NCBI GenBank assembly: GCA_023139205.1
Contig: JAGLOA010000003.1
Coordinates: forward strand, 1,779 to 65,778
Direction: 5' to 3'
DNA length: 64,000 nt
DNA from: Candidatus Pacearchaeota archaeon
GTDB lineage: Archaea; Nanobdellota; Nanobdellia; Pacearchaeales; GW2011-AR1
How positions within the stretch are numbered: position 1 is the stretch's first letter; each line of letters starts with the position of its first letter. Below the pieces are notes generated by a model. That model saw only the letters and a list, made by a program, of their open reading frames with translations. It was not told the DNA's origin and made no database searches. Shown here piece after piece: positions 3,617 to 55,465 of this stretch. The position numbers and the translations under genes are program-made.

Positions 3617-3656
3617 AACAATTAAAATAAAAACAAGTATAAAAATATTTCTAATA

Positions 3657-3781
3657 GCCCCACCAGAATTCTCAAAGAAGTTCTCGCCTGTCTTTCAGGT
3701 TCTCGCACCCTTTTTTATGATGTGCTCTTTTTGGATATCGGGGCCTTGGAGGTCATCCCTTGGGAAACCTTGGTTCGAAAA
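3657..3781. repeat. GC-rich mosaic repeat element B, copy 1, abutting the 3' end of tRNA-Gln
   Basis: Modules it shares with the copies at 26930-27037 and 53059-53178: cagaattc, gaagttctcgc(acc), ggggcct(t/c)g(g/a)ag, ggaggtcatccc(t/g)tggga. Confidence 0.5.
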
Positions 3782-3854
3782 TAGCCCTACCAGGATTCGA
3801 ACCTGGGTCACAAGGTTCAGAACCTTGCATACTTGACCACTATACTATGGGGCT
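3782..3854 (-). tRNA. tRNA-Gln (anticodon CTG)
   Basis: Reverse complement is AGCCCCA..TAGGGCT with one C/A acceptor mismatch. Anticodon stem CAAGG/CCTTG with loop TTCTGAA; T arm CCAGG-TTCGAAT-CCTGG. Starts with AGCCCC like archaeal tRNA-Gln. Confidence 0.7.
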
Positions 3855-4218: not shown

Positions 4219-4379
4219 GCCCCTGTAGTCTAGAGGCCAAGGATGCCACCCTCTCAAATCAGATTAAGAGAAAGAGGTGATTTAGTCTCGGTGAGAGAAA
4301 AAGTCTATGCATCTCAATGCAGCCTTTTCTCTGTATTTGGAGAACGGTGGTGACCCGAGTTCAAATCTCGGCAGGGGCG
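4219..4379 (+). tRNA. intron-containing tRNA, most likely tRNA-Glu (anticodon CTC), with an approximately 88-nt intron after position 37
   Basis: Perfect acceptor GCCCCTG/CAGGGGC and T arm CCGAG-TTCAAAT-CTCGG. Anticodon stem CCACC(4246-4250) pairs with GGTGG(4346-4350) only after removing about 4257-4344; anticodon loop is CTCTCAA. Confidence 0.7.
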
Positions 4380-6795: not shown

Positions 6796-7077
6796 ATGGA
6801 AAAACCAAAACCCTTAACAAAAAGACAAAAAATAATTGTAAAAACAAAAGCTTCTGCAAAAAAATTAAAAAGAGAAATAAAAAAATCAATAAGTACTGCA
6901 ATTGTTGCTGCATTTGGTTTTTTAATTGCTTTGTCTTGGAGAGATGTAATAAAAGAATACGTTAATAAAATTTCCTCTCTAAGCCCTATTCAGGGGAATC
7001 TAATTAGTGCTGTAATAATAACGATTATTTCTGTAATTGGAATTTTAATTATTACCAAATTTTTATCAGGAGAATGA
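6796..7077 (+). CDS. small membrane protein (hypothetical)
   Basis: 93 aa with a basic N-terminus and two TM helices. Confidence 0.4.
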   Translation: MEKPKPLTKRQKIIVKTKASAKKLKREIKKSISTAIVAAFGFLIALSWRDVIKEYVNKISSLSPIQGNLISAVIITIISVIGILIITKFLSGE

Positions 7078-7817
7078 ACCATAAGAATATTTTTCAGATA
7101 ATGAAAATACTTTCAAAAAAATATATTTTTACTGAAAAAACAACTTTAAATCGCATGCGAAAAAAACACAGCAATGCGACTTTCATCGGAGGCAAAGAAA
7201 AAAAGTCGCCCTTAAGTGCTTCGAGGAAGGAGCGCGAGGAAAATCAAGGGGTTTCCTCGCACGCTTTTAAAATATTGATTTCTTGCTTATTATCATTAAG
7301 AGCAAGAGATGAAAACACAAAAAAGGTTTCAAAAAAATTATTCACAATAGCAGACACCCCAAAAAAGATTTCAGCAATTCCTCTAAAAAAATTAGAAAAA
7401 ATAATCTACAGCTCAGGGCATTATAAGAAAAAAGCAAAAACTCTCAAACACGTTTCAAGTGAACTTATCAAAAAATTCAATTCAAAAGTTCCTGACACAA
7501 AAGAAGAATTACTGAGCATAAAAGGGATTGGACCAAAAACAGCAAACATTGTTTTAGCGTTTGCTTTTAATAAATTAGTTCTGCCAATTGATACTCATTG
7601 TCATAGAATCCCCAACAGACTTGGCTGGGTAAAAACAAAAACAGCTGAAAAAACAGAAAAACAATTAGAAAAAATTCTTGAAAAGAGATATTGGTCAAAC
7701 TTCAATGCAATCTTTGTTCAGTTTGGAAGAGAAATCTGCCAACCAATATCTCCGTGGTGTTCTAAATGTCCCCTTAAAAAATATTGCCCAAAAATTGGAG
7801 TTATTAAAAGAAGATAA
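7074..7817 (+). CDS. nth: endonuclease III (HhH-GPD DNA glycosylase/lyase with a 4Fe-4S loop); true start is probably internal
   Basis: ILISCLLSLRARDENT helix, HhH SIKGIGPKTANIVL, catalytic D in PIDTHCHR, and C-x6-C-x2-C-x5-C at the C-terminus. The N-terminal 60 aa include GC-rich element A copy 2. Confidence 0.8.
   Translation: MNHKNIFQIMKILSKKYIFTEKTTLNRMRKKHSNATFIGGKEKKSPLSASRKEREENQGVSSHAFKILISCLLSLRARDENTKKVSKKLFTIADTPKKISAIPLKKLEKIIYSSGHYKKKAKTLKHVSSELIKKFNSKVPDTKEELLSIKGIGPKTANIVLAFAFNKLVLPIDTHCHRIPNRLGWVKTKTAEKTEKQLEKILEKRYWSNFNAIFVQFGREICQPISPWCSKCPLKKYCPKIGVIKRR
7174..7266. repeat. GC-rich element A, copy 2, with an extra second hairpin, inside the 5' region of the nth ORF
   Basis: GCGACTTT(7176-7183) pairs with AAAGTCGC(7202-7209), compensatory relative to copy 1. 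A second stem GCGAGGAAA/TTTCCTCGC lies at 7234-7260. Confidence 0.5.
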
Positions 7818-9456: not shown

Positions 9457-10737
9457 ATGGATAATGAAAATTTTTCTTATATAACATCAGTAAGAGGCAA
9501 TGAAGAGATGCCAACCTTTAACACCCCAAAGAATGGAGTGTACGAGAGAAATCAAGGGGTTTCCTCGCCTTGGACTGAAAAATACAGACCTAAAAAATTT
9601 GAAGACCTCAAAGGTCAAAATGAAGCAATAAATAAAATAAAAAACTTTATAGAAAACTTTTCTTCTTCTAAGAAAAAAGCATTAATTCTTCATGGTCCTC
9701 CTGGAACAGGGAAAACTACAATAACACATATAATTGCAGAAGAAACAAATTCAGAAATATTTGAATTAAATGCTTCTGACTTAAGAAATAAAAATAAATT
9801 AAAAGAAATTTTAAAACCTGCAATTGAACAAAGATCTTTAATCAAACAAAAAAAAATAATCTTAATAGATGAAGTAGATGGAATCTCAACAGTAGACAGA
9901 GGGGGATTAACAGAACTTGTATCTTTAATAAAATTAAGTTCTTATCCATTAATAATGACTGCAAATGATGCATGGAACAAAAAATTAAGTCCCTTAAGAA
10001 AAACTTCAGAATTAATACAATTAAAAGAAATTGATTATCACACAACCAAAGAAATTCTATTCAGCATCTTAAGAAAAGAAGGGCTTTTCATCGACAATAA
10101 CATAATAACAAACCTCTCAATAAAAGTAAAAGGAGATATAAGAGCTGCAATAAATGATTTACAAACAATCTCCCATACAAAAGATCACTCTTCATTAAAT
10201 CTCGACGAAAGAAACAAGGAAATTGATATTTTCCACGCACTAAGAATGATCTTCAAAGGAAAAGCAACACAAGAAATACTAAAAGTTTTTGATTCAGTAA
10301 ATATGCCAATAGACAAGAAACTTTTATGGATAGAAGAAAATATTCCTTTAGAATATCAGGGAGAAGAATTAGCAAATGCCTGTGAAAGATTAAGCAGAGC
10401 AGATATTTTTAAAGGAAGAATATACAAACAACAATATTGGAGATTTTTAGTTTATGAAAATATACTTTTAAGCTATGGAGTTTCTGCTGCGAAAAAAAGT
10501 GTTAAAACAGGGTTTACAAGTTACAAAAAACCAACAAGAATTTTAAAAATCTGGATGAACAATCAAAAAATAGCTAAAAGAAAAACAATTGCAAAAAAAT
10601 ATTCAAGATATGTCCACATTGGAGAAAAACGTGCATTGCAGGAATTTTTTATAATCAAACAAATCATAAAATCAAATCCAACAATTTCAAAAGAGTTGAA
10701 ACTTAACGAAGAAGAAGTTGAATATTTAGCAAAGTGA
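9457..10737 (+). CDS. rfcL: replication factor C large subunit; start may be ATG 9508
   Basis: WTEKYRPKKF, Walker A GPPGTGKT, Walker B DEVD. The N-terminal extension carries a fragment of repeat element A (9549-9568). Confidence 0.85.
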   Translation: MDNENFSYITSVRGNEEMPTFNTPKNGVYERNQGVSSPWTEKYRPKKFEDLKGQNEAINKIKNFIENFSSSKKKALILHGPPGTGKTTITHIIAEETNSEIFELNASDLRNKNKLKEILKPAIEQRSLIKQKKIILIDEVDGISTVDRGGLTELVSLIKLSSYPLIMTANDAWNKKLSPLRKTSELIQLKEIDYHTTKEILFSILRKEGLFIDNNIITNLSIKVKGDIRAAINDLQTISHTKDHSSLNLDERNKEIDIFHALRMIFKGKATQEILKVFDSVNMPIDKKLLWIEENIPLEYQGEELANACERLSRADIFKGRIYKQQYWRFLVYENILLSYGVSAAKKSVKTGFTSYKKPTRILKIWMNNQKIAKRKTIAKKYSRYVHIGEKRALQEFFIIKQIIKSNPTISKELKLNEEEVEYLAK

Positions 10738-26892: not shown

Positions 26893-26929
26893 TTTATGCC
26901 CCTAGTAAAAATCTTTTCAGAAGATTTTC

Positions 26930-27037
26930 TCTCAGACCTACTTGGTTCGGGGCCTCGAAGAGGTCTTGTCCCTCCTTGGGATACTCGCACCTTCTTGGTG
27001 TACGCACGAAGTGTGTCCCTTATACACCCAAGGGTGT
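26930..27037. repeat. GC-rich mosaic repeat element B, copy 2, in the hsp20 5' leader/promoter region
   Basis: Shares ttcggggcctcgaagagg, tcgcacct(c/t)cttggtgtac and cccttggg modules with copies 1 and 3. Internal pairs CCCTTGGG/CCCAAGGG and ACACCC/GGGTGT. Confidence 0.5.
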
Positions 27038-27066
27038 AAAAATTTAATTTATTAATTTTTATCATT

Positions 27067-30861: not shown

Positions 30862-30994
30862 TTAATTCTTAGCAGACAACATCTTTTTAAATCAAAAGTT
30901 ATTTACTGAATTACGGCTCCGTAGCTTCCCAAGGAGGGATGATCTGCTTTGCAGACCTCAGCCTTTTAAGTTACTTCGCAGTCGCCCCAAAAAT

Positions 30995-31069
30995 GGCTCC
31001 GTAGCTCAGCTTGGTCAGAGCACCAGACTCTTAATCTGGGTGTCGAGGGTTCAAATCCCTTCGGGGCCA
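30995..31069 (+). tRNA. tRNA-Lys (anticodon CTT)
   Basis: Acceptor GGCTCCG/CGGGGCC, anticodon stem CCAGA/TCTGG with loop CTCTTAA, T arm GAGGG-TTCAAAT-CCCTT, discriminator A. Confidence 0.85.
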
Positions 31070-31139
31070 TTTCTAATTTTGGTAAAATGGTAAGAAAATT
31101 ATTAGTAAAGTTTAAAGGGATTAAATTATTCTATTATTT

Positions 31140-47447: not shown

Positions 47448-47660
47448 ATGATTAATGAAGAATATTTTAAAGAAAAGATAGACAAAGAACATATATCTCC
47501 GGAAGATATTTTAAATTCATATAATCCTTTAACAAAAGAGATGATTGAAAAAGGAAAAATTTGGAACCATGTTTGGGGACAAACTGATTGGGGACAAGAA
47601 TCTTGGGGACGAGAATGGGGCAAGGATTGGGGAAAAGAAACTTGGAATCAAGCTAGCTAA
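47448..47660 (+). CDS. candidate RiPP precursor peptide with C-terminal tandem W-G-x-x repeats
   Basis: 70 aa; the C-terminal 30 aa are VWGQTD WGQES WGRE WGKD WGKET WNQAS, from imperfect 12-15-bp DNA repeats. The stop is 1 nt before the next gene. Confidence 0.45.
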   Translation: MINEEYFKEKIDKEHISPEDILNSYNPLTKEMIEKGKIWNHVWGQTDWGQESWGREWGKDWGKETWNQAS

Positions 47661-47661
47661 A

Positions 47662-48363
47662 ATGTCTGTTTTAAACTATTCTCTAGGGAAAAACAAAAAA
47701 ATCTTATTCTTTGGGGTTAATCACAGTAATTCTGATTTTTTACAAATAAAGAATTTAAAAGATAATCTTGTAAAATTTAATCCAGATCTTATTTTAATTG
47801 AAGGGGGATTTGAAAGAGCAAATTTTGAAACTGAAAAAGAATCAATATCTCAGGGGGAATTGGGATTTGCATCTTATTTTTCAAAGAGAAATAATTTTGA
47901 ACTTCTCGGAAATGACCCTCCTGAAAAAGATTCGATAAACTTTCTAAATTCTATTTATGGGGGAAATTTTTCTTTTTTGTATTTTGTTTTGAGAAATTTT
48001 TCTTATTTCATCTCAATTAAAAAGATTTCTTCAGATGAAAAAGGGTTGCTTTTTGCTATAGAAGACTTTGTAAATACTTTTAATGAAGATATTCCTCTTT
48101 TCTCAATTCAAAAATTTAAAGAATTTTTCTTTACAATATTCAAAAAGCCATTTTCTTTTAAAGAGAATTATTCCTCATACGCTTCTTCCCTATCTCAAAA
48201 CAAAAAAATGAAGCAGGCCACAAAAAGACTAAGTCTTTTTAGAGATTTTTATATGTTTAACAAAATATTAAATTCCCTTAAAGAAAAAGATAGAATTTTT
48301 ATAATTAAGGGAGAAAGTCATTTAGAAATATTTAAAAGATATTTTAAAGATTTTTTTGAGTAA
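47662..48363 (+). CDS. TraB/GumN-family protein
   Basis: ILFFGVNHSNSD..PDLILIEGGFER near the N-terminus and IFIIKGESHLE near the C-terminus, which match the TraB family pattern. Confidence 0.4.
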   Translation: MSVLNYSLGKNKKILFFGVNHSNSDFLQIKNLKDNLVKFNPDLILIEGGFERANFETEKESISQGELGFASYFSKRNNFELLGNDPPEKDSINFLNSIYGGNFSFLYFVLRNFSYFISIKKISSDEKGLLFAIEDFVNTFNEDIPLFSIQKFKEFFFTIFKKPFSFKENYSSYASSLSQNKKMKQATKRLSLFRDFYMFNKILNSLKEKDRIFIIKGESHLEIFKRYFKDFFE

Positions 48364-51391: not shown

Positions 51392-52480
51392 CTAAACCTT
51401 AAATCTCAAAATAGCGCCAATCCCTCCAAGATTCTTGAATTGCTCTCCTTCCTCTGTTTCAGTGGAAATAATCTCAAAATCTGAACCCATATCTCCAGCT
51501 ATTTTTTTTAATTCTTTTGCAATCTTTTTATCAATCTCTTTAGATAAAAACAACATATCTACTGCACCATATTCCAAAGCTTTCTTAGTATCCTCCTCTT
51601 TCAATGTAGCTAAATAAGGTTTCTCCCCTAAAGTTTCAAAAAACCTTTCCAAAACTTTTTTCTCATGAATAATTTCCTGACCTGCTAAAATGTCTTGAGA
51701 TTTTATAACAAGTTCTTTTAAACCAGATTCATCAGAATCCCCAATATCAATTTTTCCAATAAATTTTTCTCTTAATTTTGTAGCTAAGTATTCTCCATCA
51801 ATAAACTCATCTTTTGTTGGAATAGGCCCTCCAATTAAAATTCCTTTAAGTTTTGTCATCTCAAAAAAAATAGTTTTCATTTCATCTGCAATCCTTTTAT
51901 AAAAATCTTTAGTTAATCCTTCGGTAATTCTATGGAATCTTTGGGCACTCTGACCCCCGGCCCTAACCTTACTTGGAACACCAGAAGTCATTTTTTGCAA
52001 AACTTCTATTCTTTTTCCTTCTAATAATCCAATAGTTGCTTCTTTCCTGTCCATTACAAGAAGCCCAAAAACTTCATCAACTTCAAGCATTGTTTTTAAT
52101 GGTTCTAAAACAAATTCCTTGTCACACCTATATAATCTTGTCTTTAAAGGCATAGGAGGTTCAATATCCCATAATTGCAAATCCTGTTGACCATCTACCA
52201 GAGAAACATTTCCGCAAAATAAAGCAAGACCATTTTCAGGAGTTTTCTTCAAAGTTTTTAAATGCCTTACAATCTTCTCTAATGCCTCAGTAACATTCTT
52301 TCTCGTAGAAGTAGACTTAATATTTTTAGAAGTAGATTTTTCAGCTTCAAGCTGTCTCTGAACAGAATTAACATCATAACCCTCAGAAATATAAACAGAA
52401 ATAAGTTCAGTATGTTTCCCTTTATATTCTTCAAGTTCTTCTAAAAGTTCTTCTAATTCAAATTTTGTTAATACTGTCAT
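51392..52480 (-). CDS. prf1: peptide chain release factor aRF1
   Basis: NIKS and GGQ motifs. Confidence 0.8.
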   Translation of the reverse strand: MTVLTKFELEELLEELEEYKGKHTELISVYISEGYDVNSVQRQLEAEKSTSKNIKSTSTRKNVTEALEKIVRHLKTLKKTPENGLALFCGNVSLVDGQQDLQLWDIEPPMPLKTRLYRCDKEFVLEPLKTMLEVDEVFGLLVMDRKEATIGLLEGKRIEVLQKMTSGVPSKVRAGGQSAQRFHRITEGLTKDFYKRIADEMKTIFFEMTKLKGILIGGPIPTKDEFIDGEYLATKLREKFIGKIDIGDSDESGLKELVIKSQDILAGQEIIHEKKVLERFFETLGEKPYLATLKEEDTKKALEYGAVDMLFLSKEIDKKIAKELKKIAGDMGSDFEIISTETEEGEQFKNLGGIGAILRFKV

Positions 52481-54939
52481 TCTAAAAACCCCACCTTAAA
52501 TTGTTTCCCTTCTTTAATTTCTTTTGCATTTGTAACATTTTTCAAATCATCTAACATCTCTTTCAAATCCCCATAATTTGTTTTATTAATTGTTAAAATG
52601 CATTCTGCATTCATAGATTTTTGATTCTTTGTTTTTTCTTGTCTAACATTAGATAAAACTTCATAAAATAAACTTAAATCTTTATTTGAATCTTCAAACT
52701 TTCCAGTTCTTGGCCAAGAACTAATATGAATTGACTTGTCCTTTTCAATTTTCTTAAAATGTTCTTGATAAATTTCTTCTGTAACAAAAGGCATAATTGG
52801 GGCAATCATTTTTAAAATAGCTAAAAGAGATTTATACAAAGTATATTGTGCAGAAAGTTTCTTATCCCCTTCTCCCTGATAAACTCTTTTCTTTACAATC
52901 TCCAAATAATTATCGCAAAAATCATTCCAAAAAAAACTCTCAATCTCTTGCTTTACTTTTGAATATTCATATTTTTCAAAATTCTTTCCAGCTTCATTTA
53001 CAACATAATCTAATTTGTTTAAAAACAATTCATCCAACTTTTCCAACTTCTTTTGTTTTGCCCCAGAATTCAGTGTTTTGGGGCTTCGGAGAAGTTCTCG
53101 CACCTCCTTGGTGTACACCGAGGCCTCCCTCTTCGGGAGGTCATCCCGTGGGAAGCGGTGCGACCCATCCCATCCCTCTAAATTCATAAAAACAAATCTA
53201 GATGCATTCATTAATTTAGTTATCATTTTTTTTCCTGTAACTAAATCTTTTTCCTGATAATCTAAATCATTTCCTAACTTAGAACTTGCGGCAGCAAACC
53301 TCAAAGCATCTGCACCATACTCTTCCATAATTTTAATTGGGTCAAGAACATTTCCTTTTGACTTTGACATTTTCTCTCCGCCAAGCGTAACAAAACCAGA
53401 AATCACAATATCTTTCCAGGGAATTTCTTTTTCATGCAAATAAGATTTAACAATTGTATAAAATGCCCAAGTTCGAATTATATCATGTGCCTGTGGACGA
53501 AAAGAAAAAGGTAAACCAATCCTCCCTTTTGCCTGTGCTAATTCTGCAGCAATCTGAGGAGTCATAGAAGAGGTAGCCCATGTATCTAAAACCATTTTTT
53601 CAGGCTCAGCAATTTTATGACACTTAGGACATTTTTTTTCAACTTGCAAAGGATCAACAGGGAGCTCATTTTCAGAAGGCAAAATAATTTCCCCGCAAGA
53701 ACATTCCCAAACAGGAATAGGAATTCCAAAATGCCTGTTCCTTGAAATACTCCAATCCCATTCTAAACCATTAACCCAATTATCATATCTCTTATGCATA
53801 AATTCAGGATACCAATTTATCTTATTTCCCTGAGCAATTAATTTATCTTTTTTGTCTAAAATTTTAATAAACCATTGCTCTGTCGGCAAGAATTCAATTC
53901 CAGTTCCACATTTATCATGACAATTCAAAACATGACTAATTTCTTTTTTCTCTTTAATCAAACCCTCTTTTTTCAAATCTTCTAAAATCTTTTTTCTTGC
54001 GTCTTTAATTTTCAAACCCTTATACTTTCCAATATTCAAAGTCCCATCTTTTTCTAAAACAATTTTTGGATTAAGACCATGACGATTAATTGCATCCACA
54101 TCAAATCTATCTCCATAACTGCAAATCATTAAGACACCAGTCCCTTTATCAATTTCAGCAGATTTATCTTCAAGAATAGGAACTTCTTGATTAAACAAAG
54201 GAACTTTTGCTTTTTTTCCGACGAGAGTTTTATATCTCTTATCCAGAGGATTAACAAAAACTGCAACACAAGCCCCCAATAATTCAGGACGGGTTGTAGC
54301 AACCAATAAATCTTTTTTGTTGCATTTAAACTTCAAAGTTGAAAACAAACTCGTCTCTTCTTTATCTTCCAATTCTGCCTGAGCAATAGAAGTTTGGCAT
54401 TCAGGACACCACAAAGTTGGAAACTCTTTTTTATAAGCTTCTTTTTTCTTAACTAAATCAATAAAAGATTTCTGAGAAACTTTTTGTGAATGTTTATCAA
54501 TTGTCGAATAATAAATATCATAATCTGAAGAAATTCCTAAATCCCTAAAATCTTTAATGCAGATTGGAGTAACTTTTTTAAGAGTTTTCAAACACAATGC
54601 AATAAATTTAGAACGACCCATATCCTTGCTTTTAACTTTGTTTTCCTTTTCAATAAATCTCTCTGTAGGCAAACCATTATCATCTGTTCCAAAAGGATAA
54701 AAAATATTCTTCCCTTTCATTCTCATAAATCTAATTATAAAATCCTGCTGCGAATAACTAAAAGCATGCCCAATATGCATTCTCCCAGAAATATACGGCG
54801 GAGGAGTATCTACGCTAAAAATCTCTTCTTTCCTCTTTGCATCAAACTTGTAAATCCCTTGGTTTTCCCAGAATTTTCTCCATTTTTCTTCAATACCCTT
54901 AAAATCAAATTTAGACTTTGCCATGAGGAAAATACCCAC
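52477..54939 (-). CDS. valS: valine--tRNA ligase (class I aaRS), containing an in-frame GC-rich insertion
   Basis: HIGH-like PPPYISGRMHIGHA, KMSKS, WNDFCDNYLE. Roughly 40 extra residues, encoded by repeat copy B3, follow NASRFVFMNLEG. Confidence 0.75.
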   Translation of the reverse strand: MGIFLMAKSKFDFKGIEEKWRKFWENQGIYKFDAKRKEEIFSVDTPPPYISGRMHIGHAFSYSQQDFIIRFMRMKGKNIFYPFGTDDNGLPTERFIEKENKVKSKDMGRSKFIALCLKTLKKVTPICIKDFRDLGISSDYDIYYSTIDKHSQKVSQKSFIDLVKKKEAYKKEFPTLWCPECQTSIAQAELEDKEETSLFSTLKFKCNKKDLLVATTRPELLGACVAVFVNPLDKRYKTLVGKKAKVPLFNQEVPILEDKSAEIDKGTGVLMICSYGDRFDVDAINRHGLNPKIVLEKDGTLNIGKYKGLKIKDARKKILEDLKKEGLIKEKKEISHVLNCHDKCGTGIEFLPTEQWFIKILDKKDKLIAQGNKINWYPEFMHKRYDNWVNGLEWDWSISRNRHFGIPIPVWECSCGEIILPSENELPVDPLQVEKKCPKCHKIAEPEKMVLDTWATSSMTPQIAAELAQAKGRIGLPFSFRPQAHDIIRTWAFYTIVKSYLHEKEIPWKDIVISGFVTLGGEKMSKSKGNVLDPIKIMEEYGADALRFAAASSKLGNDLDYQEKDLVTGKKMITKLMNASRFVFMNLEGWDGSHRFPRDDLPKREASVYTKEVRELLRSPKTLNSGAKQKKLEKLDELFLNKLDYVVNEAGKNFEKYEYSKVKQEIESFFWNDFCDNYLEIVKKRVYQGEGDKKLSAQYTLYKSLLAILKMIAPIMPFVTEEIYQEHFKKIEKDKSIHISSWPRTGKFEDSNKDLSLFYEVLSNVRQEKTKNQKSMNAECILTINKTNYGDLKEMLDDLKNVTNAKEIKEGKQFKVGFLE
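53059..53178. repeat. GC-rich mosaic repeat element B, copy 3, in-frame inside valS
   Basis: ccccagaattcag...ggggcttcggagaagttctcgcacctccttggtgtac...gggaggtcatcccgtgggaag. Confidence 0.5.
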
Positions 54940-55135: not shown

Positions 55136-55465
55136 ATGTTTCCAGGATTAAACCCAAAAAAAATGCAGGCAGTAATGAAACAGATGGGAATAGCCCAGGA
55201 AGAAATTTCTGCTTCAAGAGTTATAATTGAAAAAACAGATAATTCTAAGATAATTATTGAATCCCCTTCTGTAACAAAAATAAAAATGCAGGGGCAGGAG
55301 ACTTTTCAGATTGCAGGAGAAATTTCAGAAGAATCAGGGGAAATTGGAATTTCAGAAGAAGATGTTCAAACTGTAATGGAAAAAACAGGAAAATCAGAGG
55401 AAGAAGCAAAAGAGGCTTTAGAAAAAACAGGTGATTTAGCGGAGGCAATTCTTGAGTTAAGTTAA
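55136..55465 (+). CDS. nac: nascent polypeptide-associated complex protein
   Basis: NAC domain plus a C-terminal UBA-like EEEAKEALEKTGDLAEAIL. Confidence 0.8.
   Translation: MFPGLNPKKMQAVMKQMGIAQEEISASRVIIEKTDNSKIIIESPSVTKIKMQGQETFQIAGEISEESGEIGISEEDVQTVMEKTGKSEEEAKEALEKTGDLAEAILELS

Follow-up and report, generated by a model that had tools for sequence, protein, structure and literature searches.

In-frame repeats in housekeeping genes are known from Rickettsia, as the Rickettsia palindromic elements (RPEs; Ogata et al. 2000 Science 290:347, as summarised in PMC10969869), and archaeal transposable elements of the miniature inverted-repeat kind (MITEs) are listed in that review for Sulfolobus, Halobacterium, Haloquadratum and a small number of other archaea only. 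Here we analyse a GC-rich block within valS, the valyl-tRNA synthetase (ValRS) gene of a Candidatus Pacearchaeota archaeon, in a 64,000-nt stretch of contig JAGLOA010000003.1 (hereafter the window). Orthologues have an empty site where the block lies, which shows it to be an insertion, and we consider it probable that it is a GC-rich, non-autonomous, RPE-like repeat that is translated as a tolerated loop of the enzyme. No literature on DPANN or Pacearchaeota equivalents was found, and a RPE-like element family is apparently undescribed in DPANN archaea.

The likeness to RPEs is one of functional class, and no homology to RPE-1 to RPE-10 is claimed or expected for this element of an archaeal host. 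As in Rickettsia, short (about 100–150 bp) dispersed repeats lie in-frame in unrelated housekeeping open reading frames (ORFs), where they keep a conserved reading frame and add a peptide while leaving the protein functional in outline, and orthologues lack them; intergenic copies exist too, and no transposase has been identified. Several features differ. The host is a DPANN archaeon rather than an alphaproteobacterium, the genome has 29% GC whereas the element has a strongly raised GC content, separable 30–33-nt hairpin modules take the place of one long palindrome, divergence among the copies of a single genome is high, and the same valS loop has been hit twice and the equivalent loop of cysS (cysteinyl-tRNA synthetase, CysRS) once. 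A second comparison is with the mobile GC clusters of yeast mitochondria and the related byp elements of Magnusiomyces, which are short, GC-rich and hairpin-forming, and reside in very AT-rich organellar genomes of eukaryotes. Like them, our element has some copies inside protein-coding genes and shows presence/absence polymorphism among strains or relatives. Byp elements break the frame and are skipped by the ribosome, whereas here the frame is preserved and bypass is unneeded; no homology is implied.

The GC-rich block in valS

The block (53059–53178) has a GC content of 61%, compared with 31% for the remainder of valS and 29% for the whole window, and is the strongest GC island of the window, peaking at 0.68 in 60-nt windows. 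It is stop-free and in-frame with valS, the ORF reading ...NASRFVFMNLEGWDGSHRFPRDDLPKREASVYTKEVRELLRSPKTLNSGAKQKKLEKLDELFLNKLDY... across it. A first-pass annotation, made from the letters alone, had described a GC-rich repeat copy in-frame inside valS; the frame, the sequence and the translation are as it quoted them. We compared ValRS with its 120 best relatives (65–81% identity, all DPANN), 85 of which could be scored for the spacer between the anchors NAS[KR]F[VI]xMN and [ILVM]DxxF[LI]. This spacer is 14–15 aa long in 79 of the 85 scorable orthologues and 48 aa in the window ValRS, so that the gain is a net 34 aa (102 nt) and not the approximately 40 residues originally proposed. An equally long segment of similar sequence, as expected of a lineage-wide loop, is thus not what the orthologues carry.

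In the DNA of the closest relatives, P0002 (81%) and P0003 (78%), the site is empty and reads GGT AAG ^ AAG CCG. The valS locus L001 has AAT TTA GAA GAA TAT AAA GGT AAG AAG CCG AAG AAA TTA GAA, where the window has AAT TTA GAG GGA TGG GAT GGG TCG [102 nt] AAA CAA AAG AAG TTG GAA. Alignment with the T. thermophilus ValRS structure 1GAX is interrupted at the insert as well (query 595/636 versus chain 601/607). The insert boundary is ambiguous by about 3 nt, 53062–53163 being equally possible. In the GC-rich 5' flank the codons change from E/G-Y-K-G-K to G-W-D-G-S, and two nearly invariant residues flanking the insert are altered, Tyr to Trp and Pro to Gln. A sequence resembling this flank, GGTGATGGCG, precedes the copy found in a helicase tail of contig L028 (see below), and the flank (53161–53176) probably belongs to the inserted DNA. 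Because the flanking codons have changed too, the boundaries given are approximate and any target-site duplication (TSD) is putative.

The host ORF matches 1GAX with an E-value of 3e-95, and its 820-aa product has the Pfam domains tRNA-synt_1 (20–560) and Anticodon_1 (636–780). The product is 100% identical to the database protein P0001 (valine--tRNA ligase, Candidatus Pacearchaeota archaeon), for which NCBI sets the start 5 codons downstream of the ORF start, giving 815 aa; P0001 is present on four contigs, including ENA ERZ23498528. The neighbours of valS are aRF1 (51392–52480) and NAC (55136–55465), in the same gene order as in relatives. Coordinates of the features discussed are collected in table 1.

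Table 1. Features of the valS element, its relatives and other loci; positions are those of the window.
Feature	Position	Strand	Details
valS (valyl-tRNA synthetase), 820-aa ORF from GTG	52477..54939	minus	ORF intact
Net insertion, 34 codons H594-A627, HRFPRDDLPKREASVYTKEVRELLRSPKTLNSGA	53059..53160 (102 nt, 60% GC)	minus	from orthologue alignment and empty-site DNA of L001, L002, L061
GC-rich 5' flank, gene sense GGGATGGGATGGGTCG	53161..53176 (16 nt)	minus	overwrites ancestral codons, no length gain
33-nt module TTCCCACGGGATGACCTCCCGAAGAGGGAGGCC, hairpin CCUCCC-GAAGA-GGGAGG	53122..53154	minus	in long cysS allele, not in short one
30-nt module ACCAAGGAGGTGCGAGAACTTCTCCGAAGC	53083..53112	minus	not in cysS copies; partly common to copies A and B (GGTGCGAGAAC; GTACACCAAGRAGGTGCGAG)
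3' terminal hairpin module CCCAAAACACTGAATTCTGGGGCA, GCCCC...GGGGC stem	53059..53082	minus	conserved as 3' end in copies A and B as well as in those of valS, cysS and the helicase
Copy A, intergenic	3651..3780	minus	directly 3' of tRNA-Gln (3782-3854, minus), co-oriented; nhmmer E 0.35
Copy B, intergenic	26896..27037	minus	between CDC48 stop (27067) and Hsp20 start (26892), co-oriented with both
Copy D	30927..30994	plus	directly 5' of tRNA-Lys (30994-31070, plus), co-oriented; short motifs only
L031 cysS (100%)			72-nt insert: 39-nt form plus 33-nt module TTCCCACGGGATGACCTCCCGAAGAGGGAGGCC between CACCGC and TCGGTG
L059, L060 cysS (L059 88% identical to L031 CysRS)			39-nt insert: CACCGC TCGGTG...GAATTCTGGGCGT
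L058 cysS (83% identical to L031 CysRS)			empty: AAA AAA GGA ^ AAA GTA
Second family in endonuclease III (nth), N-terminal part	ORF 7074-7817		in-frame, co-oriented
Second family in replication factor C (RFC) large subunit, N-terminus	ORF 9457-10737		in-frame, co-oriented
Second family, intergenic copy between pheS and pheT			co-oriented with genes
DDE_Tnp_1 transposase (IS4/IS5-type), 398 aa	60737..61930	minus	no recognisable terminal inverted repeats in flanks

Relatives of the element

We searched the genomes of 185,579 species, together with the JGI metagenomes, for the 19-mer GGAGGTCATCCCNTGGGAA. Most matches were due to chance and lay in high-GC bacteria; the real ones were confined to L008, L028 and L031, all low-GC DPANN contigs, where homology to the valS element is extended (nhmmer E 1e-10). 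Three element modules gave 0 matches in IMG/VR viral contigs. Rfam yielded nothing at gathering thresholds and only chance matches up to E 10, with no rRNA, RNase P or SRP among them, and a 19-nt core this rare is not a piece of a conserved RNA gene. At the protein level, a HMMER search of the peptide against 1.84 billion representative proteins returned only an unrelated eukaryotic repeat protein and no family with the peptide, while a word-index search for other host proteins gave no candidate, its query probably being too short.

L031 holds the element in cysS, which encodes a CysRS of 486 aa, in the same orientation and frame as in valS. The protein reads ...NLKREHRFPRDDLPKREASVYAKTLNAGRKVN..., and the peptide is nearly that of ValRS (HRFPRDDLPKREASVY). 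Alleles without an insert, with a 39-nt insert and with a 72-nt insert were found among related cysS genes (table 1). In both synthetase genes the insert follows a Gly codon, and the loop that is hit comes after the helix preceding the anticodon-binding helical bundle. In L028, and in its deletion variant L008, two or three in-frame copies occupy the RG-rich C-terminal tail of a DEAD-box helicase; the frame in which these are read differs from that of the valS and cysS copies and is free of stops in that variant of the element. The tail of this related Nanoarchaeota metagenome-assembled genome (L028 3959–5164, minus strand, compared with L008 4130–4571) is largely made of element copies, and a deletion of ~270 nt between repeated TPNYGMKGQSN-coding units separates the two versions. 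Low-complexity tails may draw their sequence from the element.

The core of the element is identical at 43 of 47 nt between the window and L028, at non-orthologous sites. The organism of L008 and L028 is syntenic with the window, with PheT 66–69% identical and a neighbouring ORF 62%. The element is therefore conserved far above the host genes, which fits propagation or exchange from conserved source copies. Presence at non-orthologous sites, along with the empty site that orthologue alignment confirmed and sized at 102 nt, supports the first-pass proposal that a repeated, hairpin-rich element has inserted in-frame.

The element is modular. The valS copy equals the 72-nt cysS form with an extra 30-nt module; the core of the 33-nt module recurs in copy A, copy D, a remnant in another valS (L003, below) and L008/L028; and the order of modules varies among copies. 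Within the window, copies share 11–20-nt near-exact blocks with valS (blastn-short E 0.002–0.008). Copy A has GGAGGTCATCCCTTGGGAA, GTTCTCGCACC and the end GAATTCTGGTGGGGC in common with the valS copy, blocks that also read as GGAGGTCATCCCKTGGGAA and an GAATTCTGG(T)GGGGC end. Copy B matches the valS copy over CTCGCACCTTCTTGGTGTAC (19/20 nt; nhmmer E 0.027) and in the block CTCGCACCTYCTTGGTGTAC, and has a 48-nt block in common with L008/L028 (nhmmer E 2e-5). Copy D contains TTCCCAAGGAGGGATGA-hairpin-CCTC and GCCCCAAAA, more fully TTCCCAAGG-GGGATGA-hairpin-CCTC, and falls below significance when compared with the family by nhmmer. It carries a different hairpin at the same position, which suggests some importance of hairpins to the element, be it in DNA or in RNA. 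The term 'repeat copy' therefore holds in a modular sense and not for the full length: no second copy of the whole 116-nt block with ≤3 mismatches is present in the window, and a generic repeat finder did not report the family. No family copies were found in the loci of the close relatives L001 and L002 (33 kb), whose GC islands are tRNA or coding sequence.

The end of copy A, AATAGCCCCACCAGAATTC (3653–3671), matches 17 of 19 bases of the tRNA-Gln 3' end plus 3 flanking bases (AATAGCCCTACCAGGATTC, 3780–3798), and the GAATTCTGG(T)GGGGC terminus also closes the valS and cysS copies, so the 3' end of the family resembles a tRNA T-arm with the acceptor 3' strand. Copy B fills the spacer between CDC48 and Hsp20 (26893–27066), ending 4–5 nt before the ATG; it would give the small heat-shock gene a GC-rich, structured 5' leader, for which a thermosensor-like role is conceivable. 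The 68-nt copy D is bracketed by a perfect 12-nt direct repeat, GGCTCCGTAGCT (30915–30926 and 30995–31006), which equals positions 1–12 of the intact tRNA-Lys(CTT). This repeat looks like either a target duplication or a partial tRNA duplication rescuing the gene.

The site in valS has been hit more than once. The valS of L003, which encodes P0049, has a 24-nt insert at the insertion site of the window, keeping TCCCCAAGGGATGAC and TCTGG. Ranked by closeness to P0001, P0049 comes only 23rd; the site is empty in the nearest relatives both of P0001 (78%) and of P0049 (86%), and the common ancestor of the two in a neighbour-joining tree spans all 120 sequences. Given this distance and the empty sites of the nearest relatives, two independent insertions are required, or else many precise losses. 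The same valS loop is a recurrent target, and the equivalent loop of cysS has been hit too.

These relatives bear on an alternative without a mobile element, in which a lineage-specific loop grew through slippage or local duplication, or a piece of a GC-rich housekeeping RNA gene was captured as filler DNA during repair. In favour of it, a GC-rich island of an AT-rich archaeal genome is usually a structural RNA gene, and some copies adjoin tRNA genes and bear tRNA-end-like sequence. Against it, there is no local duplication in the window, Rfam gives no similarity to rRNA, RNase P or SRP, other genomes essentially lack the 19-nt core, and homologous copies sit in unrelated genes of three other contigs. 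We regard such an origin as barely credible.

Fate of the insert in RNA and protein

The insert is probably translated, as a 34-residue loop, and not removed. Coding inserts are all multiples of three in length (102 nt in valS, 24 nt in the valS remnant, 72 and 39 nt in cysS), and all, including the helicase-tail copies, are stop-free in the host frame of ORFs that are otherwise intact. Of the three gene-sense frames of the valS/cysS element, two hold stops and the one in use is open. The small in-frame derivatives of 39 and 24 nt have lost most of the structure and lie in intact genes. The first-pass annotation had left two outcomes open, a tolerated surface loop of the RPE kind and removal from the RNA by splicing at a bulge-helix-bulge (BHB) motif; the frame and length pattern favours the former.

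Splicing would have the tRNA splicing endonuclease cut an intron-like sequence at a BHB and the exons ligated, leaving a mature ValRS without the 34 residues. BHB introns do occur in archaeal mRNA, as in cbf5 of Crenarchaeota, and the valS insert resembles them as a sense-oriented intervening sequence in an archaeal coding gene of an organism with intron-containing tRNAs. That the organism uses a splicing endonuclease follows from one such tRNA gene, with an intron of ~90 nt (4219–4379); moreover, the element is GC-rich and hairpin-forming, two of its copies abut tRNA genes, and all copies are co-oriented with host or neighbouring genes, as RNA-level elements would be. Yet a scan of the valS sense strand for hBHBh' motifs found none bracketing the insert, the remaining matches having 2-bp A/U helices or being internal, and the best GC-rich internal candidate would excise 71 nt and cause a frameshift. 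If the element were spliced, neither the length in multiples of three nor the stop-free host frame, found although two of the three sense frames have stops, would be needed, and the persistence of in-frame 39-nt and 24-nt deletion derivatives without most of the structure points the same way. Splicing thus lacks a credible motif spanning the insert and leaves the frame and length constraint unexplained; we judge it highly improbable.

Two related observations complete this comparison. The intron-containing tRNA gene lies on the plus strand, scores 44.6 bits with Rfam and was missed by ARAGORN, and its intron is unlike the repeat family. An intein was rejected as a candidate, as the insert has 34 aa against the at least about 130 aa of inteins, which have splicing blocks A, B, F and G and a nucleophile at both junctions, and shows no Cys/Ser-...-His-Asn-Cys/Ser/Thr architecture.

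In the protein, the insert (residues 594–627) falls between tRNA-synt_1, which ends at 560, and Anticodon_1, which starts at 636, and between two helices. An AlphaFold2 (AF2) model of ValRS was built from a 22-sequence alignment and has a mean pLDDT (predicted per-residue confidence) of 60. It renders the insert (P0001 589–622) as coil and a short helix with pLDDT below 50, between helices 538–580 and 629–650. This fits a loop that borders Anticodon_1 on its N-terminal side. A loop of the anticodon-binding helical domain had been the expected position, and placement at the surface receives only rough support from a poor model.

A loop at this position, the entrance of the anticodon-binding domain of class-I synthetases, could have been co-opted, with a basic segment adding a function such as tRNA or partner binding in ValRS and CysRS and being kept by protein-level selection. 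Two paralogous synthetases from different organisms do use one and the same frame and have almost one and the same peptide (HRFPRDDLPKREASVY) in loops that are structurally equivalent, the net charge of the peptide is positive, and the valS site is recurrently hit. We nevertheless think co-option unlikely: the peptide is missing from about 118 of the 120 close ValRS and from most CysRS, the insert decays by deletions, the helicase copies use another frame, and no protein family with the peptide was found by HMMER among the 1.84 billion representatives. Since only one gene-sense frame is open, the common peptide is accounted for without function.

Folding offers a further reading, in which the element is a small structured RNA gene or cis-antisense RNA on the plus strand, opposite valS, and the protein insertion is a by-product. 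Compared with shuffles, the valS copy (161 nt) reaches a z-score of −4.4 on the plus strand and −1.4 on the valS sense strand, five of the six copies fold somewhat better antisense, and one stem has a compensatory change (CACCG/CGGTG versus CGCCG/CGGCG). Among the other copies z-scores are modest (−1.2 to −3.2), the full range being +0.4 to −3.2, and the element has several hairpins, degenerate in some copies, instead of one long palindrome. There is no Rfam match, module order varies among copies in a way unlike a conserved RNA gene, and a DNA hairpin would account for the compensatory pair just as well. We rate this reading as very unlikely.

Mobility, orientation and significance

On the interpretation we prefer, a GC-rich, hairpin-forming, non-autonomous repeat of about 100–120 nt would have inserted into valS at the DNA level, drawn from a modular family whose members are dispersed over the genomes of this Pacearchaeota archaeon and its relatives. 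The site hit is an A-rich stretch coding for the loop ...NLE-x-Y-K-G^K-K-P-K-K-LE..., which joins the anticodon-binding helical bundle and the helix just before it. With the copy in the sole stop-free gene-sense frame and of a length that is a multiple of three, the ribosome would read through, and ValRS would gain, and tolerate, a probably flexible loop of 34 residues at its surface. Copies would afterwards decay by in-frame internal deletions, as from 72 to 39 nt in cysS and to the 24-nt remnant in the valS of L003. The loop is taken to be neutral or tolerated.

A search for terminal inverted repeats (TIRs) on the element found none; one end, CACCGC..., is no inverted copy of the other, ...GGGGCA/GGGCGT, unlike the TIRs of classical MITEs. 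Comparison of filled and empty cysS alleles revealed no target duplication, and at the valS sites a 3-nt GGN repeat is possible. An AAAGGT/AAAGGA flank precedes three insertions, and a putative target AAAGGN^AAR rests on 3–4 sites. The element resembles classical prokaryotic MITEs in being small, non-coding, non-autonomous, multicopy and structured, and MITEs can make in-frame fusions; it differs in having no TIRs, no clear TSD and no parent insertion sequence with matching ends in the window. Palindrome-associated elements (PATEs), derived from IS200/IS605, and REP/RAYT elements have no TIRs or TSDs, carry (sub)terminal hairpins, show strand bias and use a short specific target motif. Our element is like these in its lack of TIRs and TSDs, its hairpins, its orientation bias and its possible target AAAGGN^AAR. 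However, a transposase survey of 60 window ORFs found only a DDE_Tnp_1 protein and no TnpA(Y1), RAYT or TnpB, so that a link to PATE/REP is a hypothesis only. The DDE_Tnp_1 transposase was rejected as a mobilising partner, its flanks being AT-rich and unrelated, with no ends in common with the GC-rich elements.

Several points weigh against our interpretation. With no TIRs, no clear TSD and no partner enzyme, we infer, rather than show, that the element is or was mobile via a trans-acting activity. The case for translation is likewise drawn from frame and length statistics of a handful of events, and the AF2 model, poor overall, supports the 'surface loop' placement only roughly. Similarity among the window copies is weak and limited to short modules (nhmmer E 0.03–0.35), and the family is rare in public data, the exact 19-mer occurring in only 3 non-window contigs. 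Finally, the coding copies (valS twice, cysS, helicase) are all in one orientation although none of the three antisense frames of the element holds a stop, and the same co-orientation with adjacent genes is seen in the window's three intergenic copies. Random insertion followed by selection against stops is not enough to explain this, which hints at an RNA-level or strand-specific component. The bias fits selection against strong mRNA structure, strand-specific insertion or an RNA-level step, and the data cannot separate these.

Taken further, these features could describe a hitherto unrecognised archaeal mobile element: a modular GC-rich hairpin cassette without TIRs or TSDs, set in one orientation relative to transcription, which would home repeatedly to one A-rich, loop-coding AAAGGN^AAR site, at the anticodon-binding domain entrance in class-I synthetase genes, and beside tRNA genes, and would pass from one DPANN lineage to another by a route that is strand-specific or RNA-templated, possibly via its tRNA-end-like 3' terminus. 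We give this proposal an outside chance.

A second, unrelated GC-rich repeat family was also observed in the window, at 7161–7275, 9491–9569 and 507–559, all on the plus strand (nhmmer E 2e-5 and 3e-5; one exact 20-nt block). The endonuclease III ORF has about 33 residues more than solved EndoIII before the HhH-GPD core, and the RFC copy peptide ERNQGVSS resembles EREENQGVSS in nth. The GC island of nth (7175–7270) had been a candidate for the valS-element family and was rejected, showing no significant similarity to it and belonging to the second family. With copies in nth and RFC, the genome would carry at least two families of in-frame mini-elements. Another GC island, unrelated to the valS element, is a G-rich stretch (47561–47649, plus strand) at the start of ORF 47545–48360, which codes for repeated W-G-Q/D/K units (TGGGGACAA...TGGGGACGA...).

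If confirmed, the valS element extends selfish DNA lying within genes that encode proteins, best known from Rickettsia, to the tiny, AT-rich genomes of DPANN archaea, and even to essential translation enzymes. The cysS series (empty, 39 and 72 nt) and the two valS insertions show class-I synthetase loops tolerating 8–34 extra residues. For annotation, GC-rich in-frame blocks need not be assembly errors or genuine lineage-specific domains. Together with the tRNA-end-like termini, the orientation bias and the lack of both TIRs and TSDs would fit an unfamiliar route of mobilisation.

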